DNA of 64,000 nt, from NCBI GenBank assembly GCA_021414115.1, contig JAIOPD010000095.1:21989-85988 (forward strand). Reading direction: 5' to 3'. Source of the DNA: Planctomycetia bacterium (lineage in GTDB: Bacteria > Planctomycetota > Planctomycetia > Pirellulales > UBA1268). The notes beneath the pieces are model-generated. The model was given only the letters and a program-made list of their open reading frames with translations. It was not told the DNA's origin and made no database searches. Position 1 is the first letter of the stretch. The number at the start of each line of letters is the position of its first letter. A program made the position numbers and the translations under genes. Below are positions 24,683-56,913 of this stretch, piece by piece.

Positions 24683-24727
24683 CTGCACGCCCTGCGCATA
24701 ACCAGCCAGTGATCAGCGCCGGACAAC

Positions 24728-24913
24728 GCTGCCGGTAACGCTTGATCGACGATGCTGGGTGCGGCTCGATGCGAGCCCGAGAGGCATGCTTCGAAGAAAG
24801 CTCCCCGAGTAGGATCACGCACCCGTGCGTTTTCCGGAGGGAAAGCGAGGGTTGCCGAGGCACAGCGACGCAGAATCCGACGTAGCCGGAAGTTCGCAGG
24901 AAGTCGGAGAAGG
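24728..24913. repeat. att-like site 1 (tRNA-Asn 3' core 24797-24815, class B arm 24865-24884)
   Basis: Core AAAGCTCCCCGAGTAGGAT; GCGACGCAGAATCCGACGTA 68 bp after the core start; left flank similar to 30645-30715. Confidence 0.85.
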
Positions 24914-25000
24914 CGTAGGATTGTCCGGGGATGGTCCGGCGGTGTGCCGCGTTGGGCTGGTGTATGATGTCAGGAGAGCACGCGAAGAGACGGAGCGAGC

Positions 25001-25210
25001 ATGCGATCTTATACGGCCATCATTGAGCGGTGCCCCGATACGGGACTCTATGTCGGATATGTTCCTGGACTGCCGGGCGCGCATTCGCAGGGGGAGACGA
25101 TCGACGAACTCAATGTGAACCTCGCCGAAGTCATCGAAATGCTGCTTCAGGATGGAGAGCCCGCCCTGGAATCAGAGTTCATCGGAACACAGACGGTTCA
25201 GGTGGGCTGA
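25001..25210 (+). CDS. hicB: HicB-family antitoxin
   Basis: YTAIIE..YVGYVPGLPGAHSQGETIDEL..NLAEVI. Confidence 0.85.
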   Translation: MRSYTAIIERCPDTGLYVGYVPGLPGAHSQGETIDELNVNLAEVIEMLLQDGEPALESEFIGTQTVQVG

Positions 25211-25213
25211 GCG

Positions 25214-25285
25214 GTGGCCAAGCGCAAACTCCCGATCCTCAAGCCGGCGGAAGTCGTGACGAAACTCGTTGCGCTCGGCTTTGCG
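25214..25285 (+). pseudogene. hicA: Truncated HicA toxin (N-terminus only)
   Basis: MAKRKLPILKPAEVVTKLVALGF directly after hicB; similarity stops before the GSH motif. Confidence 0.7.
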
Positions 25286-25316
25286 GACTGCCTTCGATAC
25301 ATGTACGCTTGTGCGT

Positions 25317-25517
25317 ATGGTCACGCTCGCTGACATCGAAGCCGCAGCCGTTTCGCTCTCGCCCGCAGAGAAGCAAGAGTTAATGCTCTTCCTGGCTTCG
25401 CGGCTGCGAGCCGAAGGTGCGGCGCTGCCGGAGCCTCGCGTGTTTACAGCAGATGAGATGGCAGGTTGGATCGCTGAAGATGAGGCGGACATGCGCCGTC
25501 TGCGGGAGCAGCTGTGA
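25317..25517 (+). CDS. Small putative antitoxin
   Basis: MVTLADIEAAAVSLSPAEKQEL...; its stop overlaps the PIN start (GTGA). Confidence 0.65.
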   Translation: MVTLADIEAAAVSLSPAEKQELMLFLASRLRAEGAALPEPRVFTADEMAGWIAEDEADMRRLREQL

Positions 25518-25873
25518 GGCTGTTTCTGGATTCAAGTGTCATGATCGCCGGGGCTGCGTCTGCCGAAGGCGCGTCCCGCGCGGTGTTCCGCCTCGCAGCA
25601 GTGCATGATTGGGGGCTGGTGACGACGCCCTATGCCGTTGCGGAGACAGTCCGCAATCTCGCGACGTTCCCGCCACCGATCACCGCCATGTAGCTGAGGC
25701 TTCGGAGCCAACTCGTAGTCGTCGATGATGTCTTGACGATCGACAAGCCCGCTGTGTTTCCCGTAGAGAAGGACAGACCGATTCTTTTCAGCGCCTTGGC
25801 ATCGGCGGATGTTCTTCTGACGCTCGATCGCGCCGATTTCAGCCGCAGATACAGCGATCCCGCCAAAAGGTGA
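25514..25873 (+). pseudogene. PIN-domain toxin pseudogene
   Basis: MRLFLDSSV...KDRPILFSAL..ADVLLTLDRADF with an in-frame TAG at 25691-25693; the C-terminus runs into an arm-repeat remnant. Confidence 0.8.
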
Positions 25874-25918
25874 CGTAAAAAGCGACGTAGCGTAGATGTG
25901 GCAGGGGCTGACAGGACG
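25870..25918. repeat. Degenerate att right-arm remnant
   Basis: GTGACGTAAAAAGCGACGTA at 25870-25889 has the same 8-4-8 layout as the other arms. Confidence 0.6.
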
Positions 25919-26013
25919 TGGTGGGGACGTTGCCGAACCGTAATGGCGGTGACGTCACCACCCCGACCAGAACAGAACTTGCCTGCGTGTCCGAGCGGCA
26001 ATACCTTGAACGG

Positions 26014-26497
<484 letters not shown>

Positions 26498-26519
26498 TTC
26501 CTCGTGGTCCGGCAATCGC

Positions 26520-26612
26520 CAGACCTACGAAGTCGAGTTCGTCGCTGGCGATGGCAAGAGCGTGGACGTTGTTACGCTCAAGCCAGAGGACATTCGCCGC
26601 CTCTCGGCATGA
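26520..26612 (+). pseudogene. DUF4926-like C-terminal fragment
   Basis: TYEVEFVAGDGKSVDVVTLKPEDIR, lacking the N-terminal half. Confidence 0.6.
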
Positions 26613-26686
26613 CGGATGCGGCACCGCCGCCGTTGGGAGGAAGAGCGAGCTGGGTTGACGCCGTTCAATCCAATGCGGTGAACGGG

Positions 26687-26780
26687 AAAGCTCCCCGAGT
26701 AGGGTGAGCGCACACCACCGCCATAGGCCCCGCGGAGCGGACGGCGGCGGTTCGGGGCAAGTGACTGGGACAAACTGCCC
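26687..26780. repeat. att-like site 2 (17 bp core 26687-26703, divergent class C arm)
   Basis: Core AAAGCTCCCCGAGTAGG; GGGGCAA/GGGACAA repeat pair at 26754 and 26767. Confidence 0.7.
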
Positions 26781-26818
26781 TTTCAGTACGCCACCAGCCG
26801 CCCCCTGTCTCCGGCCCC

Positions 26819-27007
26819 CTACTTCTTCGGGATGTAGGCGTTGACGCCCACGATCACCTTCTTGCCGTCCACCACGCAGTCGGTTTCTTTGTTTCCGTAG
26901 GTCGAGGCGACCACTAGCGTTTTGCCGCTGGACGACCGTTCCGGCTTGGAATTTAGGGGAATCCTGAGAACCAACTCATCGCCAACGATTTTTGCTGAAA
27001 AAGCCAT
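26819..27007 (-). CDS. Small hypothetical protein (62 aa)
   Basis: MAFSAKIVGDELVLRIPL..SSSGKTLVVASTYGN..VIVGVNAY; AAGGA RBS upstream. Confidence 0.7.
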   Translation of the reverse strand: MAFSAKIVGDELVLRIPLNSKPERSSSGKTLVVASTYGNKETDCVVDGKKVIVGVNAYIPKK

Positions 27008-27099
27008 GGGGCCATTCCTTGGACGGTTGAGGGAGAGCGAATCGACCAGTCTACGAGACTCGATTAGAATTCGGTCCAGCGGCACGACGGAACGCTTGC

Positions 27100-27339
27100 A
27101 TGACACCAACAGTCTTTAGAGAAGGACCATTTCGGTTCTTTTTCTTCTCACGAGAAGAAACGAGGATGCACGTTCATGTAGCTCACCCAGACGGAGAGGC
27201 CAAGTTCTGGCTCGACCCAGAAGTAGAACTAGCCACCCAGACGGGCTTGGCGAAGCACGTTATTTGCGAGGCACAGCAACTGGTTGAAGACCATCTGCAG
27301 GAGATCATCGATGCCTGGAACAAGCACTTTCCCGGTTGA
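27100..27339 (+). CDS. DUF4160 protein (putative toxin)
   Basis: PTVFREGPFRFFFFSREE.RMHVHV...EAKFWL. Confidence 0.87.
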   Translation: MTPTVFREGPFRFFFFSREETRMHVHVAHPDGEAKFWLDPEVELATQTGLAKHVICEAQQLVEDHLQEIIDAWNKHFPG

Positions 27340-27568
27340 AGTCACGAACGTTTCCAGGCACGGCCTGTGGCTGCTAGTTGGGGATGAGGAGTTGTTCTTG
27401 CCCTTCGAACACTTCCCATGGTTTCGTGAAGCCAGTATTGAGAAGATTTCGGTCATTGAGCGTCAGACCGCCGACCATCTGTACTGGCCGCTGCTCGATA
27501 TCGATGTATCAGTCGAATCGATTCGCAACCCTGACGCCTTTCCCCTTGTTGCCAGGAGTCAGCAATGA
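27311..27568 (+). CDS. DUF2442 protein (putative antitoxin)
   Basis: EVTNVS.HGLWLL..EELFLPF..FPWF..HLYWP.LDID. Confidence 0.85.
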   Translation: MPGTSTFPVEVTNVSRHGLWLLVGDEELFLPFEHFPWFREASIEKISVIERQTADHLYWPLLDIDVSVESIRNPDAFPLVARSQQ

Positions 27569-27774
27569 GCGAACACACCTACAAGATGATCGAGTTGGTC
27601 GGCTCTTCGCATACGGGTATTGAGGCGGCAGTTCAGAACGCCATCGCCAAGGCGGAAATCAACGAGAGCAAGATGCGGTGGTTCGAGGTGATGGAAACCC
27701 GAGGCCACATAGAGAATGGCAAGATCGCCCACTGGCAGGTCCGAGTGAAGATCGGCGTGACGATGGACGAGTGA
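27565..27774 (+). CDS. Dodecin (flavin-binding)
   Basis: TYKMIELVGSS..IEAAVQNAI..WFEVMETRGHI..WQV.VKIG. Confidence 0.93.
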   Translation: MSEHTYKMIELVGSSHTGIEAAVQNAIAKAEINESKMRWFEVMETRGHIENGKIAHWQVRVKIGVTMDE

Positions 27775-27802
27775 CGCCGTCCTCACCCCAGCCTGCCTCT
27801 TC

Positions 27803-27956
27803 GTGCGGCTTCTTGCGGAGAAAGCTCCCCGAGTAGGATTCGTCACAGCCGTAGTTTGCGACGGGAATGGCGAGGGTTCTGCGAGGGAGCGACTCAAAAA
27901 GCGACTCACTCGGCAGGGTCGGGAAGTCCGCAGGAGGCCGCACGGAGTCGCACGGG
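27803..27956. repeat. att-like site 3 (22 bp core 27821-27842, class A arm 27889-27908)
   Basis: Core AAAGCTCCCCGAGTAGGATTCG; arm GCGACTCAAAAAGCGACTCA; then CGCAGGAGGCCGCA.GGAGTCGCA. Confidence 0.9.
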
Positions 27957-28023
27957 CTTTCGCCACGCTCCCACCAGACACCAAGGGAGACCCCGTCAGC
28001 GAATCGTTGGGAAAAGCAGGAGG

Positions 28024-28413
28024 TCAATCCCAGAGTCGGGTGACCCCGTACTGGTCAAACACCGTATCGGCACTGACGATTGGAATGGTCTCAACCAGGC
28101 ATTGAGCCACGAGGAGTCTGTCAAAAGGATCTCTGTGGTGGAATGGCAAAGCCGTCTGCCGTTCGGTGAACTCCAACGTGATTGGGGACACTGTGATGCC
28201 GAGGTCAGCCAACGCCCGCTCCACCCATTGGCGATACGGCAGAGACAGCGAAAGTTTCTTGAGGCTTGTCTTGATGGAGAGTTCCCAGATCGTCCCGACG
28301 CTTACCGTCAATTCAATGGCGGGGTTTTCAAGGATGGCTCTGGCACTGGCACCGAGCCTACTCGGGTCGTCCAACGCCCAGATCAAGGTGTGGGCATCCA
28401 GAAGATGCCTCAT
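28024..28413 (-). CDS. vapC: VapC PIN-domain toxin
   Basis: LLDAHTLIW, S...WEL, HHRDPFDRLLVAQ. Confidence 0.92.
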   Translation of the reverse strand: MRHLLDAHTLIWALDDPSRLGASARAILENPAIELTVSVGTIWELSIKTSLKKLSLSLPYRQWVERALADLGITVSPITLEFTERQTALPFHHRDPFDRLLVAQCLVETIPIVSADTVFDQYGVTRLWD

Positions 28414-28646
28414 TCCATGTACTCCGTGAAGTCCTCCATCCGAGCATCAAAGTCGGGAGCCATGTACAGGACGGTTCCCTTCATGGTTCCCAGTTGGCGG
28501 TGAGCCTTCTTGGGAATCGGCGGTGTCGGAACGAGCCGAGCCACTGGCTGGTCGTTTTCGGTGATCACGACCTCATCCCCAGGCGTTAGGCGATGGATGA
28601 TGTCGGCCAGGCCAGACTGGGCTTCTTTGAGCGTCACGGTGGTCAT
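28410..28646 (-). CDS. Phd/YefM-type antitoxin
   Basis: VTLKEAQ..L...GDEVVIT...PVARLVP...G.MKG...PDFDA..EDF; overlaps the vapC start. Confidence 0.88.
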   Translation of the reverse strand: MTTVTLKEAQSGLADIIHRLTPGDEVVITENDQPVARLVPTPPIPKKAHRQLGTMKGTVLYMAPDFDARMEDFTEYME

Positions 28647-28708
28647 GGCAAAGTCTCCTGCCATGATCCTACCAACCACCCGTCCCTTCTGGACTCACCG
28701 GTTCGCAA

Positions 28709-28843
28709 AAAGCTCCCCGAATAGGATTCGTCACAACCGCCGTTTGTGACGGGAAGGGCGAGGGTTCCGCGAGGGAGCGACTCAAAAAACGACTCACTCG
28801 GACGAGCCTGGACGTTCGCAGGAACCCGCATGAGTCCGCACGC
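28709..28843. repeat. att-like site 4 (core 28709-28730, class A arm 28777-28796)
   Basis: Core AAAGCTCCCCGAATAGGATTCG (one mismatch); arm GCGACTCAAAAAACGACTCA at +68. Confidence 0.9.
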
Positions 28844-28912
28844 TCGGAGCCGCGAGAGGTAGCGCCGGCCCGCGTCCTGGGTGGACAGGCACGGGGATAA
28901 CAGGCGAGCCCG

Positions 28913-28969
28913 CTGCCGTCGCGACCTCTTTGGTGGTCGCTGAGTGGCCGGCCAAGAGGGCGACGGCAG
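28913..28969. other. 57-nt bulged inverted repeat
   Basis: CTGCCGTCGC-GA-CCTCTT-T-GG pairs with CCAAGAGG-GCGACGGCAG; inner GGTCGC/GTGGCC stem around a TGA loop. Confidence 0.7.
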
Positions 28970-29072
28970 GGGACGGTGCCTCCGGATGCCCCATCAGTTC
29001 GCGGTGCTGCCTTTGGCGTGCCACCGTATACTTGAACGCGTTCGCGGTGTCCCATGATGAGGTGACCAACCC

Positions 29073-29303
29073 ATGAATCACCCAGAGAAGCATGTTCATG
29101 TTCAGGTGACAGTCGGAGCACATGGCTCTGTCACCCTCGACCAGCTGCCATACGAGCCTGGCCAACGGGTGGACGTCACGATCAGCCCGATCGCTGCTCC
29201 ACATGCAGACGGTGCGCCCCGGTATCCGCTCAGCGGAACGAAGGTGGAGTACAACGGCCCCTTCGAGAGCGTCGCGGAAGGTGACTGGGAAGCTGCAAGG
29301 TGA
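29073..29303 (+). CDS. Putative antitoxin
   Basis: G.VTLDQLPY.PG..V.V...YPL.G..V.Y..PFESVAE.DW; its stop overlaps the vapC start. Confidence 0.75.
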   Translation: MNHPEKHVHVQVTVGAHGSVTLDQLPYEPGQRVDVTISPIAAPHADGAPRYPLSGTKVEYNGPFESVAEGDWEAAR

Positions 29304-29698
29304 TCGTTCTCGACACGCACGTGTGGGTCTGGTGGGTGCACCAGGATGATCGGCTGTCGACGAAGGCCAAGTCGTTCATTTCCCAGCACGAAACGCGGCA
29401 CATCGGCGTCAGCGCGATCTCCTGCTGGGAAGTTGCGAAACTGGTGGAGCGTGGGCGCCTCCGGCTCCCCATGTCCACCGATCAATGGCTCCATGCGGCG
29501 CTCGCCTATCCCGGAGTCAGACTTCTTGAACTCACGCCGGACATCGCCGCCGACGCGTGCAGCCTGCCTGGGGCTTTTCACAGCGACCCGGCCGATCAGA
29601 TCATCGTTGCCACGGCGCGACATCACGGCAGCGGGCTTGTGACGATGGATCAGCGCATCCTTTCGTATCCGCATGTGCCCTTGGCGCGAGTCGCCTGA
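29300..29698 (+). CDS. vapC: VapC PIN-domain toxin
   Basis: IVLDTHVWVWW, SAISCWEVA, FHSDPADQIIVATA, VTMD. Confidence 0.92.
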   Translation: MIVLDTHVWVWWVHQDDRLSTKAKSFISQHETRHIGVSAISCWEVAKLVERGRLRLPMSTDQWLHAALAYPGVRLLELTPDIAADACSLPGAFHSDPADQIIVATARHHGSGLVTMDQRILSYPHVPLARVA

Positions 29699-29761
29699 GA
29701 CGTTCGTGGGTTGGCGCCCGGCGATCGCGAACTGCTCTGCGAGGCTTCATGGCCGGCCTGT

Positions 29762-29905
29762 TGCGGCCTCCTGCGAAAGAGGCCAAAGCTCCCCGAGTAG
29801 GATTCGTAACAACTGCCGTATTCTCCGTGAAAACACGGGGGTCGGCAGGAAAGTGACTCAAAAAGCGACTCACTTTTCAGTCCGCAGGAGGTCGCAGGAG
29901 GACGC
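29762..29905. repeat. att-like site 5 (core 29785-29806, class A arm 29853-29872)
   Basis: Left TGCGGCCTCCTGCG is inverted relative to right CGCAGGAGGTCGCA; arm GTGACTCAAAAAGCGACTCA at +68. Confidence 0.9.
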
Positions 29906-29955
29906 TCCGGCTCGCGGTAGAATGAGGACGTTACTCGGTAGCCAAGGAACCCGCC

Positions 29956-30273
29956 GTGATCGCGTCCCGCCTGCTCGACGAACTCAAGGAACGGCTGACA
30001 TCAGCCTACGGCCATCGGCTGCACGCCGTGGTGCTGTTCGGATCCGAGGCTCGAGGCGAGGCCAAGCCGGACAGTGACATCGACGTGTTGGCAGTACTTC
30101 AAACGCAGTCCGGCGACTATGGCGACGAGTTGGAGCGGGGTCTGGCCGCGGTGTATCCGGTTGCCCTGCGACTCGGTCGCCGCGTGAGTGTGAAGCCGCT
30201 GACACGCGAGGAGTATGAGCATGGCGACAGCCCGCTGCTTCGCGAGGTGCGACGTTCGGGCGTTGCGGCATGA
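29956..30273 (+). CDS. Minimal nucleotidyltransferase (MNT) antitoxin
   Basis: VLFGSEARGEAKPDSDIDVL (GS..DxD motif). Confidence 0.9.
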   Translation: MIASRLLDELKERLTSAYGHRLHAVVLFGSEARGEAKPDSDIDVLAVLQTQSGDYGDELERGLAAVYPVALRLGRRVSVKPLTREEYEHGDSPLLREVRRSGVAA

Positions 30274-30662
30274 AGGATTTCATTCGCAGCCAGTGGACGA
30301 AGGCGGCGCGGTCCCTTGCGGCAGCTCAGGCGATTCTCGCGACCGACCCTGATTCATCGGCGTCGAGGGCCTACTACGCCGCCTTCCACGGCGTGACCGC
30401 CGTGCTCGCGGGACGCGGCATGGAGTTCACGAAGCACACTGCCGTGAGGGCGGCTCTGCATCGGGACCTCATTCAGGCCGGGCTCCTGCCGGCAGATTTG
30501 GGGCGAGACTACGACTTCCTCCTCGATCTTCGCGAAACGGCTGACTACGGCGGCGTCGCCGAGGCGTCGCTGGCGAGTGCGACGAAGGCCATTGAGAAGG
30601 CACGAGCGATCCTGGCGGCGATCGAGCCTTTGTTGCCGGATGATGCTGCCGGTAACGCTTGA
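30270..30662 (+). CDS. HEPN-domain protein (MNT-HEPN pair)
   Basis: SRAYYAAFH, TKH..V, LRETADY. Confidence 0.88.
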   Translation: MKDFIRSQWTKAARSLAAAQAILATDPDSSASRAYYAAFHGVTAVLAGRGMEFTKHTAVRAALHRDLIQAGLLPADLGRDYDFLLDLRETADYGGVAEASLASATKAIEKARAILAAIEPLLPDDAAGNA

Positions 30663-30830
30663 TGAACGCTGCTTGGTGCGGCCCCATGCGAGCCGGGTGC
30701 GGCACGCTGCCAAGAAAAGCTCCCCGAGTAGGATCACGCACAATCGCGTGTTGCTGCGAGAATTTCGGTGATTCCACCCGAGAGCGACGCAGTATCCGAC
30801 GCAGTCGTTAGTCCGCAGGAGGCCGCAAAA
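30645..30830. repeat. att-like site 6 (core 30716-30734, class B arm 30784-30803)
   Basis: Core AAAGCTCCCCGAGTAGGAT; arm GCGACGCAGTATCCGACGCA at +68; left flank homologous to site 1. Confidence 0.9.
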
Positions 30831-30861
30831 GGCAGTGCAGGAATGCCGCGGTCGGCCCGCG

Positions 30862-32436
30862 TCATTCTCCAACACTCAGGCTGGAGCCCTTTTGTTTCGG
30901 CGGATACTTCTGCAACGTCGCCATGTGTTGTCCCAGTCGATCCATCACCTCGTTGTAGAGATAGGTTTTTTGTTGGGTGAGAGTCGCCCGAGGCCCCGGG
31001 GCCTGATCGTAGCTTTCGTAGGGGTCCTGCCGGACGTTGAACAGCCAGGCAAGGTCGGGCTTGGTTGTCGTGCCGTAATAGCCGTCCCGAGTCAAAAAGT
31101 GAGCCTTCCACTGGTTCATGCGGATGGCCTGGATCCGGGATTCCGCGTAATAGATGTACTCGTCCCGCGCTGATTCTTTCGCTGCGCCGGTCCAATAGCC
31201 AAGATTATTGACGCCGTCGATGTGGTTTTTGTGTTCCACGTCGGTGCCGAGCTTGTCACCTCGACCAATCCGCTCGCGGATATCGGGAACACCGGCGGCG
31301 GCCGACAACGTCGTGAATACGTCCTCATGGCTCTGGATGCCGTTGAGTTCTGATCCCGCGGGAATCCTGCCCGGCCAGCGGACCAGCATCGGAACCCGCA
31401 CCCCGCCTTCCCACGTCGTCATCTTTTCCGAGCGAAACGGTGTTGTGCCGCCGTGCGGATACGTGGAGTGCTCGACGCCATTGTCCGTCGAGTAGATCAC
31501 GATGGTGTTGTCAGCGATGCCCATTTCGTCAAGTTGTTTGAGAATCATGCCCACATGTTCGTCGTGCTGGATCACACCCGCACCGTAGGCATCGTGGTAG
31601 CTCGTGTGCTGCTTCACCTCGTCGCGATATCGCTCGGGCACGCGAGTGAAGGTGTGCATGCGTGTGGTCGCGAACCACACGAAGAACGGCTTGCGTGCCG
31701 CCTGAGCCTTCTTCATGAACAACGTGCCTTCGTTCACGAGTTCCTCGTCGACGGTCTCCATCCGCTTGCGGGTGAGCGGCCCCGTGTCCACGATCCGCTG
31801 CTTGCCGATCTTTCCGAATCGAGGATCGACAGTTTCGTCCGCCGTATCGGTTGCCCAGGTGTGGAGCACTCCCCGTGGCCCGTGCCGTTTCTTGAATTCC
31901 GGATCGGCGGGGTAATCCTCGTCTTCCGGCTCCTCCTCGGTGTTCAGGTGGTAGAGATTGCCGAAGAACTCGTCGAATCCGTGGATGGTCGGCAGATGCT
32001 CGTTCCGATCGCCCAGGTGGTTCTTGCCAAACTGTCCAGTGGCGTAGCCTCGCGTCTTGAGCACCTCGGCGAGCGTGGCGTCCTGAGGCTGCATGCCCAC
32101 CGGTCCTCCGACCATGCCCACCGCCGTTAAGCCCGTGCGGATCGGATACATCCCGGTGACGAACGCCGACCGACCAGCGGTACAGGAGGGATGTGCGTAG
32201 TGGTCGGTGAACAACACACCTTCTTTCGCAATGCGATCGATGTTTGGTGTGCGATATCCCATCACGCCGCGACTATAGATGCTGAGATTGGTGAAGCCGA
32301 CGTCGTCACCCCAAATGACAACGATGTTCGGTTTATTTCCGTCTGCCCCAGGTTGAGCAGCGACGTTGTGGTGACCTATCCAATGCAGGGCGGTGAATGC
32401 AAGAACCATCGAAGCAACATGCGATCGTTTCAACAT
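30862..32436 (-). CDS. Arylsulfatase (formylglycine-dependent, Cys type)
   Basis: Signal peptide, PNIVVIWGDDVG, SCTAGRS, GKNHLG, STDNG. Confidence 0.93.
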   Translation of the reverse strand: MLKRSHVASMVLAFTALHWIGHHNVAAQPGADGNKPNIVVIWGDDVGFTNLSIYSRGVMGYRTPNIDRIAKEGVLFTDHYAHPSCTAGRSAFVTGMYPIRTGLTAVGMVGGPVGMQPQDATLAEVLKTRGYATGQFGKNHLGDRNEHLPTIHGFDEFFGNLYHLNTEEEPEDEDYPADPEFKKRHGPRGVLHTWATDTADETVDPRFGKIGKQRIVDTGPLTRKRMETVDEELVNEGTLFMKKAQAARKPFFVWFATTRMHTFTRVPERYRDEVKQHTSYHDAYGAGVIQHDEHVGMILKQLDEMGIADNTIVIYSTDNGVEHSTYPHGGTTPFRSEKMTTWEGGVRVPMLVRWPGRIPAGSELNGIQSHEDVFTTLSAAAGVPDIRERIGRGDKLGTDVEHKNHIDGVNNLGYWTGAAKESARDEYIYYAESRIQAIRMNQWKAHFLTRDGYYGTTTKPDLAWLFNVRQDPYESYDQAPGPRATLTQQKTYLYNEVMDRLGQHMATLQKYPPKQKGSSLSVGE

Positions 32437-32734
32437 CGTGAAAACTCCTCGTCAGTTAGCGAATCAAAGAGCACAAAGTGTTGAAGTACGGATGTTCGAC
32501 CCGCCTCCGTCGCCAAACGGCTGCGACCAATGGCCCTGCGTCTCTCCCCCGAGGAACGTACCATGAAAGCGGAACAGCCCACGGTGCCGCGAACGGCACC
32601 GGACTGCACCTCATCGGCCGCTCGTCAACCGTCTGATGCTTGCGGAAGTACCGTTGACCGTCCTTTTCCTTGAAAACTGTGGTTGGCAGATCTAGCATTC
32701 GCTGCCCCCGCCTTTCCGAAAGGATCTTTTCACG

Positions 32735-34333: not shown

Positions 34334-34351
34334 CGGTTCCTGTGGCCTTGG

Positions 34352-35809: not shown

Positions 35810-35821
35810 GGTTCAGTACCT

Positions 35822-37252: not shown

Positions 37253-37444
37253 GATGCAGTGTTTCTGCGATGGCGGCACGCGCTCGAGCCGGGCAGGCTC
37301 GTGGCAGCCTGGGCAGACCGCGGAATGTGGGAACTTGTGCGCACGCCTCCCCCGTGGATGGAGCAACTCCTCTGCCATTGCTCATCGGCCGATCGTGCCG
37401 ACTGCGTCAAGAAATCCGGTTAGGAGACGTATGCCGGCCGCCGA

Positions 37445-39535: not shown

Positions 39536-39614
39536 GGGGTCGGCTTTCGTTCCAGGGTGGACTGGGCGGCTCTCCCGACATGGGTAGCCGAGCAATCGAA
39601 GAATGTGAGAGTGT

Positions 39615-40157: not shown

Positions 40158-40226
40158 AAAGTGAGGGTGTCTGGGGCGGGGTGACGCAGAATCCGACGCA
40201 GCGGGAAATCCGCGGGAGGCCGGACG
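40140..40226. repeat. att right-arm remnant (class B) without the tRNA core
   Basis: GTGACGCAGAATCCGACGCA at 40181-40200, followed by TCCGCGGGAGGCCG. Confidence 0.75.
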
Positions 40227-40381
40227 CTGGTGCCGGCCGGCATGCCGCACAGCGAACGCGATCTGCTCTTCTGTAAAGTGCTGCTTTTCCATGCAAAAAT
40301 CCACTCTTTCTGGTGATGCTAAGGTCAAAAAACCAAACCTCCCGGATGGATCAAAAAATGGGTAGAACGTCAGCCGTAGTG

Positions 40382-41914: not shown

Positions 41915-41957
41915 CCATGACACGCCGGTTTTCAGACAATCCCGTCGGGAGACGTGT

Positions 41958-43442
41958 ATGACCACGCCGAGCATATTCACCCCCAGAGCGATCATCCTGG
42001 CCACGCTGATCGGCTCCTGCCTGACGATGCCCGCAGCCCACTCGCAACTTCTGCCCACTACAGGCAGCGTCGCATCCAGGCTCGGCCCGCTCGAACTGGA
42101 GAACGGCTATCCCACCGATGCCACCGTCGCGAAGATCTTCGATGACATCGATTACCAGAGGGCGTGCCAGGCCTACCTCTGGGCTCTGCCGCTCATGGCG
42201 ATGCAGCAATGGCAGAGCGAGCACCTCGCCAGGTTCGGTGCCGGGAAGCTCGACTACGTCGACTACCTCACCTTCCAGGACAAGCTCGGCCTCCTCACGG
42301 CCAATGCCACGACGCCATACATCATGGCGTTTCCCAACCTCACGGAAACCGGGCCGCTGGTGTTCGAGGTTCCCGCCGGCCCCACGGCAGGCGGCTTCAC
42401 CGATTTCTGGCAGCGGCCCATCACCGATTCGGGCCAAACCGGCCCCGACAAGGGCGCGGGTGGCCGGTATCTGATCCTCGGCCCCCACGACCAGGAGATG
42501 AAGCCGGAAGGGTATTACGTCTTCCGTTCGCCCACGGTGAACGTCTGGTCCGCCCACCGCGTGCTCGATTCCGATCCGGCGAGAGCTAAACGGCTCATCG
42601 ACGGATTGAAGATCTATCCCTACAGCCAGCGTGACAACCCAGCTCCGACCCGCCACGTCGCGCCGGCGGGTCGGCCCTGGAGCGGCGAACAACCGCGCGG
42701 CATCGCCTACTGGGAAGGCCTCGCGAAGATCATCCAGGAGGAGCCGGTCCACGAGCGCGACCGGATGATGATGGGAATGCTCCAGCCGCTGGGCATCGAA
42801 AAGGGCAGGCCGTTCAGCCCGACGGACCGGCAGCGGCAGCTTCTCATCGACGCCGCGCAGACGGGGGAGGTGATGGCCCGGGCCATCGCCTACCACAAGC
42901 GGTTCGAGGGCGCGAAAGTGTGGCCGGATAGAAACTGGGAGCAGTCGCTGTTTCTCAAGGAGACCAATCAGGAAGCCCCACACCATACGCAGTTGGACGA
43001 GCGCACGAGCTGGTTTTACGAAGCGGTTGGTGTCTCCGTGGGCATGATGGGCCGCGCCGTCGGCGTCGGGCAGGTCTACCTCGAGGCCGCGAAGGACAGC
43101 CATGGGCGCTGGCTCGATGGCGGCAGGACCTATCGCCTCACGGTTCCGAAGGATGTTCCCGTGGCACAGTTCTGGTCTGTCACCGTGTACGACAACGAGA
43201 CCCGCTGTTTCGTCAACTCAGGCGTGTCGCCTGATCGTTCGTCAAGAGACGCGATCGTCACGAACGCCGACGGCTCCGTGGACATCACGTTCGGCCCCAC
43301 GCATCCCGCCGGCCTGCCGGAGAGCAACTGGATCAAGACGCTCCCGGGCAAAGGCTGGTTCAGCTACTTCCGCCTGTATGGCCCCACCCAGGCCTACTTC
43401 GACCGCTCCTGGGTGCTTTCGGACATCGAGGTGATCGAGTAG
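41958..43442 (+). CDS. DUF1254/DUF1214 secreted protein
   Basis: YLWALP, TANATTPY, DFWQRP, FWSVTVYD, NADGS, FRLYGP. Confidence 0.88.
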   Translation: MTTPSIFTPRAIILATLIGSCLTMPAAHSQLLPTTGSVASRLGPLELENGYPTDATVAKIFDDIDYQRACQAYLWALPLMAMQQWQSEHLARFGAGKLDYVDYLTFQDKLGLLTANATTPYIMAFPNLTETGPLVFEVPAGPTAGGFTDFWQRPITDSGQTGPDKGAGGRYLILGPHDQEMKPEGYYVFRSPTVNVWSAHRVLDSDPARAKRLIDGLKIYPYSQRDNPAPTRHVAPAGRPWSGEQPRGIAYWEGLAKIIQEEPVHERDRMMMGMLQPLGIEKGRPFSPTDRQRQLLIDAAQTGEVMARAIAYHKRFEGAKVWPDRNWEQSLFLKETNQEAPHHTQLDERTSWFYEAVGVSVGMMGRAVGVGQVYLEAAKDSHGRWLDGGRTYRLTVPKDVPVAQFWSVTVYDNETRCFVNSGVSPDRSSRDAIVTNADGSVDITFGPTHPAGLPESNWIKTLPGKGWFSYFRLYGPTQAYFDRSWVLSDIEVIE

Positions 43443-43480
43443 TCCGGAATGGCCGCGGCGTGCTCGTACGGCCACTTTCA

Positions 43481-43590
43481 AAAAGGGCCAAAGCTCCCCG
43501 AGTAGGATCGCCCACAACCGCGTTTTGCTGCGGGATTGCCGCCTAGCTTTCTAGAGGGCGACGCAGTCCGAAGTCCGCAGGAAACCGCAG
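43481..43590. repeat. att-like site 7 (core 43490-43508, partly deleted class B arm from 43558)
   Basis: Core AAAGCTCCCCGAGTAGGAT; GCGACGCAG at +68, second repeat unit lost; then TCCGCAGGAAACCGCA. Confidence 0.85.
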
Positions 43591-43605
43591 TAGGTTGGGC
43601 GAGGG

Positions 43606-43755
43606 AAGAAGAAGCATATCGGTAGCAAATTCGACGATCTCCTTCAGTTCGACCGTCTCGTCGAAACAGTCACCGCAACGGCGACCAAGCGTGTCATCAC
43701 CCATCAGATCGCCATGGAGATGAAGCGTCGCTGGCTCCCGGTCGAACTCCGCTGA
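43606..43755 (+). pseudogene. Fragment of an XRE/HigA-like antitoxin
   Basis: KKKHIGSKFDDLL...V.ATA.KRVI..QI..EMK; no start codon and no HTH half. Confidence 0.65.
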
Positions 43756-43794
43756 AGGATGGGCATTCCCGTCTACCGGTTCTATGCTGTGGCG

Positions 43795-45819
43795 ATGAAG
43801 CGGCATGTCAAACGATCCCTCCTATGTTGCTGGCTGACGGTCGTGGTCTCGGTCGTCTCGGGCGCCGAGCCGCTGCCCTCCGAACGCCTCGTCGTGCGCG
43901 GACTCGACGGCACGGCCATGCCATTCGCCAACCTTCTCGGACCCGACGGCCGAGCCGTCTGCTTCGCGTTTCTCCATCCCGCCTGCCCGCTCGCACAGGA
44001 ATACGGCCCAGTGCTCGGCCAGTTGGCAGCGGACTTCGCCGACGCACGGATCCGCTTCGTGGGCGTCGTCTGCGAGAGTGACGACCCAACGGAGGTCGAG
44101 GCCTATCGCACGAAGTTCGGCCTCACGTTCCCCATCCATCTCGATACCGACTTCACGCTGGCGGAGGCCCTCGACGCGACCATCACGCCCGAGGCAGTGC
44201 TCGTGGATCGAGAGCGGCGGATCCGCTACGCGGGCCGGATCGACGACCGCTACAAGATCCGCGGCGTGATGACGCCCGGCGATGCCGAGCCGGAGCTCGC
44301 GAACGCGATTCGTGACCTGCTTGCCGGCCGTGAGATCCGCGAGCCGCGAACCAAGGCCGCCGGCTGCCCGCTCGATCGGCCGGAACGTCCCGTGGCGCCG
44401 CCGGCAGCCGCGGCCGCGCACACGCCGACGTTCTCCAGGGACGTCTTGCCGTTCCTTCACGCCCAGTGCCAGAAGTGCCACAGCCCGAACCAGGCCGGCC
44501 CGTTCGACCTGCTCACCTACGACGATGCGGTCGAGTGGATGGAACTCGCCATCGAGGAAATCGAAGCCCGGCGGATGCCGCCGGCCCAGATCGAGAGCGA
44601 TCTCGACTACACGTGGCCGAAGCCGCCGACGGCCGCGGACCTGGCGATGCTGCGGCAGTGGGTAGCCGCCGACAAGCCGGCGGGGAATCCCGCCGACACC
44701 CCGAAGCTTCCGCCGCTCCCGGATTACTCGGCCTTCCAGGAGGATCTCGGCCCCCCCGACATCGTCCTCGAGCAGGCGCAGCCGACGCAACTCGGCGCCC
44801 ACGGCAACGACGTCTACCGCCACATCGTGTTTCCGCTTGATCGCGACGAGGACTTGAGGCTCCGCGCGATCCAATTTTTGCCAGGCAATCGCAAGGTCGT
44901 GCACCACGCGCTGCTGGGCCACCTGCCGCGGGAGACGGCCGAAGAGGCCGTGCGGGACCATGGCGGCCGTGACGGCTTCAGCCATCCCGACGACCGGGCC
45001 GGTGGCTTTCAGGATTCCCACGGCATCGGGTTTCGGGTGCCGCCCATTCGCGACGACGGGCAGCCGCGGGCCGCGTTCGTGGGCGGCTTCGTGCCGGGCG
45101 TCCGGGCGACGGTCGCCCCGGCCGATGCGGCGTTGGTGATTCCGGCGGGCTGCGACATCGCGGTTCAGGTGCATTATGTCCGCACCGGGAAGCTGGAAAC
45201 TGATTCGAGCCGCGTCGGCATCTGGCTCGCCAGGCAGCCGCCACGCAAGGTGATGAACATGATTTATCTCAGTGGCGAGTTCGCGGTGGTGCCCCCGGGC
45301 GTCACCGACTTCCGCGTCCGCGGCAGCTACACGCTCCCCCGGGATGCGGATTTCGTGGGCGTCGTGCCACACGCGCACCAGCTCGCCCGGTGGGTCGAGA
45401 TCAAGGCCCACCTGCCGGGCGAGAAGCAGCCGCTGCTCGTCCTCCGGGTGCCGCAGTGGGACTACAACTGGCAGTCGCCGTACGACCTCGAGAAACCGCG
45501 CCGGTTTCCGGCCGGCACCCGGTTCGAGGCGGAGTGTGCCTACGACAACTCCACGGCCAATCCGCGAAACCCGTTCGATCCGCCGCAGAACGTGTGGCAC
45601 AACGAGACCATCCACGACGAGATGCTGCTGCCGATGTTTACGTTCGCCTCCGAGCAGCCGCTCGACGCCAAGGGCGAATCATTCAAGAAGTTCTACTTCT
45701 CGATCGTGCGGTCGCGGTTTCTCCGGCGGCTGGTGGACCACCGCTACAAGTTCGTGGCCGATCCGCAGGGCAACGTCGTGCTTTCGCCCGACTACGACCC
45801 CGACGACCACCGCTACTGA
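43795..45819 (+). CDS. Redoxin-cytochrome c-copper monooxygenase-like fusion protein
   Basis: CP..ITPEA..YAGRIDD redoxin, CQKCH heme motif, VVHH, PHAH, WDYNWQ, DEM. Confidence 0.8.
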   Translation: MKRHVKRSLLCCWLTVVVSVVSGAEPLPSERLVVRGLDGTAMPFANLLGPDGRAVCFAFLHPACPLAQEYGPVLGQLAADFADARIRFVGVVCESDDPTEVEAYRTKFGLTFPIHLDTDFTLAEALDATITPEAVLVDRERRIRYAGRIDDRYKIRGVMTPGDAEPELANAIRDLLAGREIREPRTKAAGCPLDRPERPVAPPAAAAAHTPTFSRDVLPFLHAQCQKCHSPNQAGPFDLLTYDDAVEWMELAIEEIEARRMPPAQIESDLDYTWPKPPTAADLAMLRQWVAADKPAGNPADTPKLPPLPDYSAFQEDLGPPDIVLEQAQPTQLGAHGNDVYRHIVFPLDRDEDLRLRAIQFLPGNRKVVHHALLGHLPRETAEEAVRDHGGRDGFSHPDDRAGGFQDSHGIGFRVPPIRDDGQPRAAFVGGFVPGVRATVAPADAALVIPAGCDIAVQVHYVRTGKLETDSSRVGIWLARQPPRKVMNMIYLSGEFAVVPPGVTDFRVRGSYTLPRDADFVGVVPHAHQLARWVEIKAHLPGEKQPLLVLRVPQWDYNWQSPYDLEKPRRFPAGTRFEAECAYDNSTANPRNPFDPPQNVWHNETIHDEMLLPMFTFASEQPLDAKGESFKKFYFSIVRSRFLRRLVDHRYKFVADPQGNVVLSPDYDPDDHRY

Positions 45820-47405
45820 CGGGCCCCGCTCGCCGGGTGGAACTCCCGCGGCCCGTTGAGGAGGCTGCCGATCGGGGTGTATCGCACGCACCAGCGGTAG
45901 CTCGCGAGCAGGAGCGGCGTCACCAGGCCGAGGATCAGGAGAAACTTCACGCCCGCGGGCAGCGGCCACTGCCGGATGAGCAGTTGTGCCACCATGACCA
46001 GCGGCACGTGCACGAGATACATCCAATACGACGCATCCGCCAGCCACGCCACCGCGGGGCGGGGATGCGGGAACAGGCGGCAGAACAGGCCGATGAGACC
46101 CAGCGACATCGTCCACGCGTAGGCGGGCTGGAGGAGGGTGGCGAGCAGCCGGTCGTTCATCGTCACGATGCCGGCCACGAGCAGCACCGCCGCCGCGGGC
46201 AGCAGGAGCTTCCAATGGCGGCCGAGTCGTGTGTCGAGCCCTTCCGCCGCGAACGTGGCGACGCCAAAGAAATAGAAGCAGGCGTAGAACCCGAGCACGT
46301 GCGGCTTGGGGAGGACGCCGAGCGACGTGTCCGGGCCGTAGCTCCCTGCCAGCGACATGCCCATCACCGCCTGCGGGAGGCACGAGACTGCCATGAGCCA
46401 CCACCGCTGCCGACCCGATGGCAGGAGGCTCGTCGCGGCGAGCAGCGCAAAGAAGGCGACGAGCCAGCAGAGAAACCACAGGAACCAGAGGTGGTCGAAG
46501 ACGTTCGTCTGGACGAGGTGGAGCGACCACGAACCGACTCGCAGCCGCAGCCGTTCCGACGACAGGATCCGTGACCAGGCGAGCGTCAGCTGGTCGAGCA
46601 AGCCGCCTTCCGTGCCCTCCGCGTTCGGGCCTGCGGAGAGAACCGTGCGGAGCCGCTCGCGGCCCTCGAGGATGTCGTCGACGCCCGGCGGGGCGAGGCC
46701 GACGAGCGGCGCGAACTCGGCGGCGACGTCGGCGGAAAGCGCCAGGACTTCCGCCGGCAGCCGACCGACGACGTTCTCGGAGAGCGGGTCCGCACCGCGC
46801 TCGAGGAGCACCCGGCCCGCGGCATCCCGGCCGAAGAAGGCGACCACGTGGAGGGGCGTGTTCCCGCTGCCGTCGCGCTCGTTGACGTCGCCGCCGGCAT
46901 CGAGCACCGCGGCCACGATCGCCGGGTCGCCGTGGAGCGTGGCCCAGGCGAGCGGCGTGCGGCCGTAGAAGGCGTCCTTGCGCTCGGCCGCCCCCGCCGT
47001 GGCGAGCCTGCGGCGCACGGCAGCCTCGTCGCCGGAGAGGATTTCCCAGATCGCGGGCTCCGGGCGGATCGTGCGCTGTGCAAACCTCTTCAGGGCTGTG
47101 TCGAGCGGCACGATCGTCGCGACTGCGATCACGAGCGGCAGGACAATCCGCGCGAACCGCTGCTCGAGCAGGCTCTTGAGCCCGCGGCGGCGGTAGACGA
47201 GCATCGTGAAATAGCCACTGAGCAAGAAAAAGAGCGGCATCCGGAAGCCATGCACCGCCACGAGGAAGAGCGGCAGCAGATCGCTGTGCCGGGTGTCGTG
47301 CACGGGCCAGGGAAACGCGAAGAAGCTCAACGAGGCGTGGAGCGCGACCCCCAGCAGCATGGCGAAGCTGCGCAGGGCGTCGAGATCGGTGCGTCGCTGC
47401 GTCAT
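45813..47405 (-). CDS. Acyltransferase-3 (OpgC/MdoC-like) with inserted ankyrin repeats
   Basis: DLDALRSFAMLLGVALH, FRMPLFF.LSG, HLWFLW, SYWMYLVH; ankyrin GRTPL and GNTPLH motifs. Confidence 0.85.
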   Translation of the reverse strand: MTQRRTDLDALRSFAMLLGVALHASLSFFAFPWPVHDTRHSDLLPLFLVAVHGFRMPLFFLLSGYFTMLVYRRRGLKSLLEQRFARIVLPLVIAVATIVPLDTALKRFAQRTIRPEPAIWEILSGDEAAVRRRLATAGAAERKDAFYGRTPLAWATLHGDPAIVAAVLDAGGDVNERDGSGNTPLHVVAFFGRDAAGRVLLERGADPLSENVVGRLPAEVLALSADVAAEFAPLVGLAPPGVDDILEGRERLRTVLSAGPNAEGTEGGLLDQLTLAWSRILSSERLRLRVGSWSLHLVQTNVFDHLWFLWFLCWLVAFFALLAATSLLPSGRQRWWLMAVSCLPQAVMGMSLAGSYGPDTSLGVLPKPHVLGFYACFYFFGVATFAAEGLDTRLGRHWKLLLPAAAVLLVAGIVTMNDRLLATLLQPAYAWTMSLGLIGLFCRLFPHPRPAVAWLADASYWMYLVHVPLVMVAQLLIRQWPLPAGVKFLLILGLVTPLLLASYRWCVRYTPIGSLLNGPREFHPASGARQ

Positions 47406-47545
47406 GCGGTAAGCCGTCTGGAGGCGTGGGGACGGTATCGGAGCAAGACCAAGATGGTATCTTGCCGCGGTCACAAGGGCCGAGTGTTCACGCGGCTGGA
47501 ACCACGAGACCCGCTCCCTTTGCTTCCCAGCGGAACCTGCTCTGC

Positions 47546-49528
47546 ATGACGCTCGCACCAAAGACAGGCCTTGCGGTGGTGGCCGAGGGCGTGACCGTGT
47601 CGGTGAGTGATGGCCGCGGCGGCGGAGAGCGGAAAACACTTCTCGAGGGTGTAACCTTCCGGATCGAACCGGGCGAGTTCGTCTGCGTGCTGGGCCCCAG
47701 CGGGGCGGGCAAGAGCACGCTGGTGCGGTCGATCCTGGGTGAACGGGAGATGGCTGCCGGCCGGCTGCTCGTGGGCGGGCACGACGTGTTCGGCGAGGCC
47801 GACGCCCTCCGTGGCGCGATCGGCTACGTGCCGCAGCGGGACGTCAATCCGCCGGCCCTGCCGGTCGAGCGGGCGCTTCACTACGCGTCGGAGGTCCGGC
47901 TTCCGGCACATACGTCCGCCGCGGAGCGACAGGCTGCGGTCGATCGGGTCGTCACCGAGGTCGGCCTCGATAGGGTGCGGCTCCAACCGATCGGCAACCT
48001 CTCGGGTGGCGAGACGAAGCGGGCGAGCCTGGCAGCCGAGATGCTTGCCGCCCCGGGCCTGCTCGTGATCGACGAGGCGACCTCGAGCCTCGATCCGGCC
48101 ACCGAGGCCCGGATCATGACGCTCCTGGCCGACCGGGCCCGCGCCGGCACGACCGTGGTCGCGGTCACGCATCACCTCGACAACGTTGACCAGGCCGACA
48201 AGCTCCTGATCCTGGGCCACGGCGAGGTGGTGTGGTTCGGCTCCCGCGTCGAGGCCCTCGGTCATTTCGGGGTGCATCGTCTCGCCGACGTCTATGTCGC
48301 CATCGAGGACAAGCCGCCCGGTTTCTGGTCCGCCCGCTGGCGGGAGCGGGTCGCCGAAGACGTTGCCATGGCGGAGGCCCGCCAGCCCGACGAGCCGCGT
48401 CATCACGCCGCCCCGGAGCGAGCGGCCACGCTCGCGGCAGTGTCGATACCCGGCTTCTTCCGCCAGTTCACGACGTTTTTCTGCCGGGAACTCGAGACGG
48501 CCGTCCGCGACCGCGTGGGCGTTGCGATGTCCCTGCTCCTGCCGCTCGCGCTCGCGGGTGTCGTGCTGGCCGGCTTCGCCGACACGCGATTCCAAAACCC
48601 GCTCATGCTGACGCGGTTCCTCGACCCCGGCGAGAAGGAGGTGCTGGCGGACGTGTGGGGGGAGGTGTCAGAGGCCATCGCCACCGACTCGGTCTCCGAG
48701 CAGGATGCCAGCATCCCCGGTCAGATCCGGGTGTTCCTCGACAGCCAGCCGAAGATGCTCGCCCACCTGCGGGAGGCGACCACCGAGCGGATCATCCGCG
48801 ATGCCCTCACCGACACGCTCCCCGTCGCCCCGGATCGCGAGATCATCGATCCCGGCGGCACGTTCAAGTGGCTCTCGCTGATGAGCATCTGCATGGTCAT
48901 CCTCGGGTTCGTGACGGGATTCCGGGAGATCGTCAAGGAGCGGCCGATGCTCGACCTCGAGCGGCGGCACGGCCTGCGGTTCGCCGCCTACGTGATCGCG
49001 AAGGTCGCGGCGCTGGCGGTGATCCTCGCGGTCCAGATCGCGATTTTCAGGACCACCGTCGAACTGGGATTCATGGTCCGCGAGGCGATCGGTGGCGAGA
49101 GCCCCGCCGCGATCTACCGGCGCAGCGCCATCATCTCCGCCACATGCAATTGGCTCGCGGCGGTGGCCTGCGCGGCAATCGGCCTCGTCGTCTCGGCGTG
49201 CGTCCGCTCGACCGACAAGGGCGTGCTCGCCGTGCCGCTCCTGATCACGCCCCAGATCCTGCTCGGCGCCACGATCCTGCCGATCAAAGGGGGCGTCCTC
49301 GCCGTGCTCGCGAAGCTCTTTTCGCCGCTCTATTGGGCGCATCGCGGCTGCCGCAGCGAGGGCAACGGGGTGCCCGAGTTCTGGCAGAACCTCGGCACCT
49401 ACGACCCGGCCATCTGGATCCCGCTCGCCGCGCTCGCCACGCAGATCACGGTGGCGACCATCGTCACGATCCTCGTGCTCCGCTGGCAGGAGCGGGCCGC
49501 GCTGGGCCGGAATCGCGCCGTGCGCTGA
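47546..49528 (+). CDS. ABC transporter ATPase-permease fusion (ABCG-like)
   Basis: GPSGAGKS, LSGGE, IDEATSSLD, EIVKER, C-terminal TM helices. Confidence 0.88.
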   Translation: MTLAPKTGLAVVAEGVTVSVSDGRGGGERKTLLEGVTFRIEPGEFVCVLGPSGAGKSTLVRSILGEREMAAGRLLVGGHDVFGEADALRGAIGYVPQRDVNPPALPVERALHYASEVRLPAHTSAAERQAAVDRVVTEVGLDRVRLQPIGNLSGGETKRASLAAEMLAAPGLLVIDEATSSLDPATEARIMTLLADRARAGTTVVAVTHHLDNVDQADKLLILGHGEVVWFGSRVEALGHFGVHRLADVYVAIEDKPPGFWSARWRERVAEDVAMAEARQPDEPRHHAAPERAATLAAVSIPGFFRQFTTFFCRELETAVRDRVGVAMSLLLPLALAGVVLAGFADTRFQNPLMLTRFLDPGEKEVLADVWGEVSEAIATDSVSEQDASIPGQIRVFLDSQPKMLAHLREATTERIIRDALTDTLPVAPDREIIDPGGTFKWLSLMSICMVILGFVTGFREIVKERPMLDLERRHGLRFAAYVIAKVAALAVILAVQIAIFRTTVELGFMVREAIGGESPAAIYRRSAIISATCNWLAAVACAAIGLVVSACVRSTDKGVLAVPLLITPQILLGATILPIKGGVLAVLAKLFSPLYWAHRGCRSEGNGVPEFWQNLGTYDPAIWIPLAALATQITVATIVTILVLRWQERAALGRNRAVR

Positions 49529-49626
49529 ACGAGCCCGTCAGGGAGCGGTGACGACCGCGGCCAGGCGTGAGGCGATGACGTCGAGCACGGCGGGGTGCCG
49601 TCCATCCAGCCGCGATGGGCGCCGGC

Positions 49627-49771
49627 TGCGGAATCCTGCGAAAAGAGCCAAAGCTCCCCGAGTAGGATTCGTCACAACCGCCGTTTTCTCCGAAAAAAGA
49701 CCTGAGTCAGGGAGAAGGCGACTCAAAAAGCGACTCACTTTTTCGTCCGCATGAGGACGCATGAGGTCGCA
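49627..49771. repeat. att-like site 8 (core 49650-49671, class A arm 49718-49737); left end of the lower-GC element
   Basis: Core AAAGCTCCCCGAGTAGGATTCG; arm GCGACTCAAAAAGCGACTCA at +68; then CGCATGAGGACGCATGAGGTCGCA. Confidence 0.9.
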
Positions 49772-49823
49772 GGGAACCGCATTGGCGAATTGCCCCCACT
49801 CCTCCGTCGGCCTTCCGACCCCA

Positions 49824-49970: not shown

Positions 49971-50062
49971 GGGCGTGGCTCCTTTTCATCTGAAAGAAAC
50001 CGCGTGGAACTACATGGAGGACGAGGGTTCAGTCGGGGAAAACCCCATAACCAGCCCTTTTA

Positions 50063-51440: not shown

Positions 51441-51453
51441 CCTGTTTGGTTGC

Positions 51454-56889: not shown

Positions 56890-56913
56890 TTGGGGAACCT
56901 TTCAATGGCAAAT

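Follow-up and report, generated by a model that had tools for sequence, protein, structure and literature searches.

Integrase-free units that are flanked by attachment (att) sites and stacked at a tRNA gene are a described class of elements, the cis-mobilisable elements (CIMEs). In Streptococcus, the CIMEs of the ICESt1/ICESt3 family are deletion derivatives of this kind, stacked behind a tRNA or housekeeping gene, at its 3' end, next to an autonomous element; the cited accounts present them as composites of 2-3 elements, 1.2-13 kb long or gene-free with 130-220 bp, decayed and lying farthest from the target gene (PMC5704250, PMC7563491), and as moving in cis only (PMC7563491). Here we describe a 64,000-nucleotide stretch of a Planctomycetia bacterium genome (assembly GCA_021414115.1, contig JAIOPD010000095.1, positions 21,989 to 85,988 of the forward strand; the whole stretch is called the window, and its first letter is position 1), which carries an array of cassettes bounded by copies of the tRNA-Asn 3' end. 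The cassettes are att-flanked and contain no integrase or transfer genes, and in its structure the system is a variant of the CIMEs. What is new is that every unit of up to 1.25 kb carries a toxin-antitoxin-type gene. Unlike the Streptococcus examples as reported, the planctomycete stacks hold up to 7-8 units of a stereotyped 0.8-1.0 kb toxin-antitoxin class which crosses genera, and the cassettes often lie beside the tRNA with no helper and have an end of their own type. No description of the planctomycete tRNA-Asn system or of a toxin-antitoxin-only CIME class was found in the literature searched, which excluded subscription journals and supplements. We favour, with modest confidence, the view that these are stacked integrase-free mini-islands, inserted serially at tRNA-Asn by the integrase of full-size islands and travelling by hitch-hiking with them, a process known as CIME accretion.

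Other known systems are alike in part. The ssrA islands of Dehalococcoides are many tandem islands with a 20-bp repeat of an RNA-gene end between them, and 15 islands without an integration module were proposed to be CIMEs; they differ in their serine recombinase, tmRNA target and multi-kb dehalogenase cargo, and the cited account describes no arm-type architecture for them (PMC3146451). Serial tRNA insertion that leaves partial tRNA repeats, with older units outward, is shared by tycheposons and additive islands, but tycheposons encode their own integrase whereas the planctomycete cassettes encode none (bioRxiv 10.1101/2020.12.28.424599, PMC7771536, PMC5217437). Additive flexible islands also consist of tRNA-repeat cassettes, for which the same sources describe neither arm geometry, nor a helper, nor a toxin-antitoxin bias.

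The array was noticed in an earlier note made from the letters of the window, and its outline agrees with ours. Eight cores lie at 24797, 26687, 27821, 28709, 29785, 30716, 43490 and 49650, all on the + strand, and the - strand has none. Seven match the 17-mer exactly and the one at 28709 has a single mismatch; by chance, a 64-kb sequence would contain about 1e-5 exact copies. The core-to-core units likewise have the claimed lengths (1890, 1134, 888, 1076, 931, 12774 and 6160 bp). Arm-type repeats begin 68 bp after the core start (+68) at 24865, 27889, 28777, 29853, 30784, 43558 and 49718, the second repeat being lost at 43558, and the core at 26687 is the sole armless site among the eight. 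The geometry had been called invariant; this is true of the seven window sites, whereas family-wide the spacing is narrow, 66-69 bp. A second group of 10-bp-phased boxes, in addition to that behind the arms, was found to the left of the window cores. The claim that the units are free of integrases also stood, since the scanned open reading frames (ORFs) of the seven window units matched no recombinase family in Pfam. Orphan arms without a core occur at 23971, 24063, 25870 and 40181. Portions of units 1 and 6 match complete units elsewhere, and therefore these two units are fusions with the inner core lost, of which the arms at 25870 and 40181 are the leftovers. The array reads as follows:

23971..24796, +, outermost decayed unit with two degenerate arms, phased boxes and no core found; DUF4160/DUF2442 (DhiT/DhiA-like) pair at 24220-24682
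24797..24813, +, core 1, copy of the tRNA-Asn 3' end, with arm pair 24865-24884
24797..26686, +, unit 1 (1890 bp), fusion of about three decayed cassettes; HicB-like gene 25001-25210, small ORF and truncated PIN gene 25317-25693, orphan arm 25870-25889, DUF4160/DUF2442 pair 26014-26497
26687..27820, +, core 2 (armless) and unit 2 (1134 bp); 62-amino-acid ORF (-), DUF4160 27100-27339, DUF2442 27311-27568, dodecin 27565-27774; cassette-type end with boxes at -7/-17/-27
27821..28708, +, core 3 and unit 3 (888 bp), arm 27889-27908; on the - strand Phd antitoxin 28410-28664 and PIN toxin 28024-28413
28709..29784, +, core 4 (one mismatch) and unit 4 (1076 bp), arm 28777-28796; 76-amino-acid ORF 29073-29303, PIN gene 29300-29698
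29785..30715, +, core 5 and unit 5 (931 bp), arm 29853-29872; nucleotidyltransferase (MntA-like) 29956-30273, HEPN 30270-30662
30716..43489, +, core 6 and unit 6 (12774 bp), arm 30784-30803; two porins, two sulfatases and an alkyl sulfatase; orphan arm 40181-40200 at the start of a DUF1254/DUF1214 pair, which forms a unit of its own in relatives
43490..49649, +, core 7 and unit 7 (6160 bp), single arm 43558-43565; redoxin/monooxygenase-like, acyltransferase-ankyrin and ABC transporter genes
49650..49780, +, core 8, arm 49718-49737 and phased boxes

The experimentally tested DhiT/DhiA toxin-antitoxin system has this DUF4160/DUF2442 domain pair (PMC8198452). As regards a common Pc promoter that would drive co-oriented promoterless cassettes, as in integrons, unit 3 is inverted and promoter-like sites do not exceed the chance level. 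Within unit 6, two divergently oriented arylsulfatase paralogues (30862-34333), 71% alike in part, form the longest inverted repeats of the region.

It might be objected that inserts of different strains were joined at the short repeat during assembly or binning, as the genome was assembled from a metagenome and the assembly graph of other runs branches at the repeat. We consider such an artefact very improbable: two unitigs (2576 and 10167 nt) from the likely source run cover 23500-33000 with six cores and zero differences, and arrays recur in dozens of independent assemblies.

The 64-kb window contains no tRNA gene. The only other copy of the core in the genome is the 3' end of tRNA-Asn(GTT) on contig C102, the sole tRNA-Asn which ARAGORN finds in the whole assembly, and this supports the tRNA-Asn origin proposed in the earlier note. 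Its forecast of an intact tRNA-Asn with an integrase nearby was also right, with the difference that both lie on a separate contig, the integrase being intact and 554 bp from the tRNA. The nine genome copies are thus the eight co-oriented ones of a single array and the tRNA itself, unlike the scatter of a miniature inverted-repeat transposable element or a repetitive extragenic palindrome. Adjoining the tRNA-Asn are an arm triplet, phased boxes, a tyrosine integrase of 384 amino acids and an excisionase-like ORF (HTH_17). The integrase is of the phage type (phrog_1, E=2.6e-34) and has no match among solved structures; its alignment keeps the conserved R, K, R and Y-containing motifs, which we take to be catalytic. 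With this integrase, arm repeats and tRNA core side by side, the layout of a lambda-type att site is present. In such sites arms stand at a fixed distance, so the 68-bp spacing is an expected feature (PMC11963761). The att site of ICEMlSym, used by IntS/RdfS, is alike in its core and direct-repeat arms at fixed distance and in its oligomerising directionality factor, but all five arms are required there for efficient integration, whereas most planctomycete cassettes keep a single pair (PMC11963761). Judging from position and 10-12 bp periodicity, the integrase would bind the arms and the excisionase the phased boxes.

The DNA to the right of core 8 on the window contig (C48) and C102:1-8400 have the same G+C fraction of 0.559, compared with 0.68 in the host, and their tetranucleotide correlation is 0.92, against 0.51-0.55 with host DNA. 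This shared composition suggests one full-size island spanning from 49650 to the tRNA-Asn, called the helper island here, in which case core 8 is likely its outer attachment site. Its layout is tycheposon-like, with integrase, excisionase-like ORF, a primase-like ORF deeper in the island on C102 (a lead) and defence cargo. Among its scanned ORFs there is no relaxase or conjugation gene, so the parent element may not be an integrative and conjugative or an integrative and mobilisable element. The rows for this part of the window are:

49650..64000, strand not applicable, left part of the helper island, low G+C (0.56), with a putative continuation on C102:1-8959
54507..55442, -, XerC-like tyrosine recombinase within the helper island, sharing 24% identity with the tRNA-side integrase
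58555..62876, +, type I restriction-modification R and S genes, helper-island cargo, with M beyond the window

The XerC-like recombinase is probably not the enzyme that acts on these sites. It belongs to a cluster (54507-57917) with a small helix-turn-helix-like ORF and a RuvB-like ATPase, located beside the restriction-modification genes. The roughly 400 bp that separate integrase and arm triplet (L001:8408-8800, L066, L014:7182-7640) are DUF167 (YggU)-like, which Pfam confirms for L014 only.

Comparison with integrons was suggested by the earlier note, which likened the array to a superintegron. Sedentary chromosomal integrons do share small shuffled cassette arrays enriched in toxin-antitoxin cassettes that punish excision, and the newest cassette beside the insertion site, as may also be the case in the planctomycete stacks (PMC13108822). 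The stacks differ in their tRNA-derived core and arm repeats and have no attC, no linked IntI and no resident platform; moreover, toxin-antitoxin cassettes make up all of their short units, but a minority in chromosomal integrons (PMC13108822). The likeness is therefore an analogy only, which holds for the small array of variable order and fails for attC and linked IntI. A simple attC consensus pattern, as opposed to a covariance model, matched 0 times in 23900-50000 of the window against 2.4 in shuffles, and the C102 integrase scores 17 bits against TIGR02249, whose cut-off is 265. An IntI-like frame of the genome (C106:11246-11935, L350) reaches 322 bits, above this cut-off, over profile positions 91-314 only; it stands at the end of its contig, and its surroundings show no attC pattern.

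The exact core is present in 137 of the 176 genomes of the family, often in multiple copies with a spacing of about 0.9 kb. Scanning one genome per species yielded 92 core-plus-arm stretches; the titles of the 80 listed are those of planctomycete metagenome assemblies in all but two rows. In 59 loci, mostly picked for at least two cores within 20 kb, we counted 164 sites, of which 41 were intact tRNAs and 120 attachment sites, the other 3 being truncated at an edge. The arm lies 66-69 bp from the core in 107 of the 120 attachment sites (68 bp in 87, 67 in 15, 69 in 3 and 66 in 2); one has it at 48 bp, and 12 are armless by score. Three arm types dominate, and full-size elements with integrase, arms, core and tRNA in which the arms match were found on C102 of the own genome and in G071, G078 and, as a fragment, G010; a fourth arm type goes with a full-size integrase element in G029 and G082. 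Similar repeats with an 11-12-bp period accompany most of the related integrases at tRNA-Glu, Arg, Ser and Met, which makes fixed geometry an ordinary property of this integrase group.

A family hidden Markov model of the integrase matched one of 165 units (105 core-to-core units and 60 more metagenome units, some duplicated), and this match is a short C-terminal stump. For other recombinase families the Pfam evidence covers the window units and 83 ORFs of selected relatives' units, and does not exclude them in the remaining large units. Among the 105 units, 62 measure at most 1.25 kb, and a toxin-antitoxin-type gene occurs in 62 of 62, compared with 19 of the 43 longer ones; some of the seeds used for this were derived from these same units and named by Pfam.

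Unit families spread across several genera. Unit 5 belongs to family c0 (14 members in 3 genera) and unit 3 to family c2 (8 members in 4 genera). A unit of a different genus matches unit 5 at 97% identity, with cargo at 99.4%, while the tRNA-flanking gene is only 74% identical. Content and order are shuffled among relatives, as had been predicted: c0-c2 stands against c2-c0, and c0-c1 against c1...c0. Independent lake runs contain single units as unitigs of their own; in these runs one unitig gives core 2 another left neighbour, and a stretch of unit 4 at 99% identity forms one unitig in two other sequencing runs. G016, G137, G139 and G146, which are 93-98% complete, have arrays but no helper-integrase match, consistent with a transient helper or with an incomplete assembly. 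A search for the cassette end across the order found it in 1 of 201 genomes, with a pattern too strict to inform.

Two further observations concern the same tRNA. Three loci of genus g35 (L060-L062) carry tRNA-Asn arrays whose units measure 2.7-6.5 kb, have an end richer in AT and show another repeat behind the core; these are the arrays of another integrase type on the same tRNA-Asn. A 2.1-kb unit adjoining tRNA-Asn has a pentameric ligand-gated ion channel-like gene (L034:4446-5984) as its cargo.

Where the units begin and end can be read from 46 cassette pairs at least 85% identical: the outer left flank falls to 0.49-0.65 identity in 40 of 41 measurable cases. Core positions 0-1 go with the left unit and positions 17-24 with the right one, hence exchange takes place within the shared core block. 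A non-homologous overlap as in Tn916/IntDOT, raised because seven post-core bases vary, was dropped, since these bases follow the right-hand unit and the crossover lies inside the shared block. On either side of the sites there are boxes spaced at 10 bp, behind the arm at +98/108/118 and also ahead of the core; at least two pre-core boxes are present in 64 of the 105 units, compared with 0.35 in shuffles. Their register is -13 or -12 in helpers and two-arm units.

These data bear on the possibility that the units are immobile relics of decayed islands, spread and reordered by homologous or slippage recombination at core and arm repeats in the course of ordinary gene exchange among lake planctomycetes, and on which the integrase has ceased to act. 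The fused units and orphan arms of the window, the integrase stump within one unit and the unrelated cargoes with core-arm spacers at least 85% identical (21 of 4257 pairs) would all fit it. We nevertheless hold it unlikely. The core-arm distance stays at 66-69 bp even where the spacer sequence is replaced, phased boxes are retained at both ends among unrelated cargoes, near-identical cassettes that end at the core span genera, and repeats of 17-22 bp are short for homologous recombination.

The hitch-hiking reading builds on the site anatomy, helpers, deletion intermediates, shuffled order, cross-genus sharing and toxin-antitoxin bias described above. The series would start from full-size islands, which in this genome and a few relatives stand at tRNA-Asn complete with core, phased boxes, arm triplet and integrase. 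Cassettes would arise from these by internal deletion, for which intermediates exist in the form of two-arm units and the integrase stump. A resident helper may then excise by way of a more distant core-plus-arm site and carry the nearest cassette along, in which case the integrase-side arms would come from the helper and the +68 arm from the cassette; the spacing would be retained because the cassette must provide that arm. In a new host the helper would depart by its own site, leaving the cassette beside the tRNA. Loss of the cassette would be penalised by its toxin-antitoxin cargo, and for this reason the short units that persist would be toxin-antitoxin units. Exchange at arm repeats, finally, may have swapped core-arm spacers and fused units, as the mosaic sequences suggest. 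We favour this reading since excision by a distant core requires what the cassettes retain, the +68 arm, and supplies what they lack.

Several findings weigh against it, and some of them suit a different view, in which each cassette is excised and inserted alone as a small circle by an integrase acting in trans, with the single arm pair and phased end forming a reduced att site. Neighbouring cassette blocks are shared in only 1 of 41 pairs, below what multi-unit hitch-hiking would lead one to expect. The register -7/-17/-27/-37 occurs at 133 of the 330 distinct left flanks and at none of the 11 ends adjacent to an integrase. Such a dedicated cassette end suggests that self-excision may occur; it is periodically conserved, to a degree inflated by a set selected on that motif, and has no consensus RNA fold. 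The single units found as unitigs in other runs and the four arrays lacking a helper-integrase match point the same way. In pairs with cargo at least 97% identical, the core-arm spacer is less than 85% identical at unchanged length in 8-9 of 23, so exchange at arm repeats occurs too, a second exchange point which, from the sequences, appears to need no integrase. Further, the joining of C48 and C102 has composition as its basis and zero sequence overlap, and large autonomous islands are under-sampled because of the way the loci were selected.

The view that single cassettes circulate in trans nonetheless seems to us doubtful, and as tentative is its corollary, a family-wide library of toxin-antitoxin cassettes of about 0.9 kb moving singly on borrowed integrases, which would be a double-stranded, phage-type-site analogue of the integron with no resident enzyme. 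The integrase-side arm of the helpers (143-182 bp before the next core) is kept in only about 10 of 105 units, whereas a comparable integrase requires arms on both sides (PMC11963761). As most cassettes hold one arm pair only, hitch-hiking is somewhat likelier than independent circles. Two candidate features of the cassette end were rejected: eight apparent arms ahead of -7 ends are chance matches inside cargo, and a tRNA terminator gave no consensus fold and a chance-level scan.

Movement was also sought directly. The excised circles expected from the earlier note did not appear: no clean core-to-core skip or circle was present among 15 of 27 joints, and 0 of 143 metagenome loci had terminal repeats. 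Neither an excised circle, nor a composite circle, nor an empty site was seen, by methods which miss rare forms, and this counts against hitch-hiking as well as against single circles. Logan contigs drop rare variants, so the absence of circles from them is not evidence against circles; contigs laid on the tRNA site cannot separate integrated from excised forms, because this site and that at 49650 share 35 bases. The depth of the helper unitig is 22.8 compared with 31-37, a figure not usable as a share of cells. A phage vehicle found no support, as 0 viral contigs have core plus arm; the core is in 22 viral contigs, in nearly all of them as other hosts' tRNA-Asn or att sites, and these 22 have no integrase or cassette match within 3 kb. 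A lone circle would have no evident vehicle, since short units are too small for transfer or replication genes.

Similar inserts stand at other tRNAs of the same genome. At tRNA-Met(CAT) lies an integrase-free unit of 891 bp, C15:15917-16808 (L205), in which core and arm are arranged with the same geometry; it contains a small ORF and an interrupted, presumably PemK-like ORF, and its left flank has a second copy of the hairpin that follows the tRNA. Inserts of 0.8-3.3 kb are bounded by short duplicated ends of tRNA-Val, Arg, Ser, His and Met, the tRNA-Val insert having a 12-bp-period repeat pair at a comparable distance:

C113:30362-32395, insert with duplicated tRNA end
C113:70671-71851, insert with duplicated tRNA end
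C92:42990-43765, insert with duplicated tRNA end
C29:2649-3701, insert with duplicated tRNA end
C70:12392-15686, insert with duplicated tRNA end

The tRNA-His(GTG) occurs twice (C3:364-439 and C29:21228-21303), and the downstream flank on C29 is repeated at 3701 and 21244, which is either a duplicated island end or an assembly issue.

The helper, the two-arm unit and the one-arm cassette form a natural series, with three arm types that each have a helper, and this makes testable which att parts of a lambda-type integrase are dispensable and whether such units are relics or live passengers. For the planctomycetes concerned, toxin-antitoxin modules would be minimal mobile elements which parasitise tRNA-targeting integrases and cross genera in abundant lake bacteria. 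The family may also have taken a second, independent route to an integron-like gene store, starting from ordinary phage-type attachment sites.

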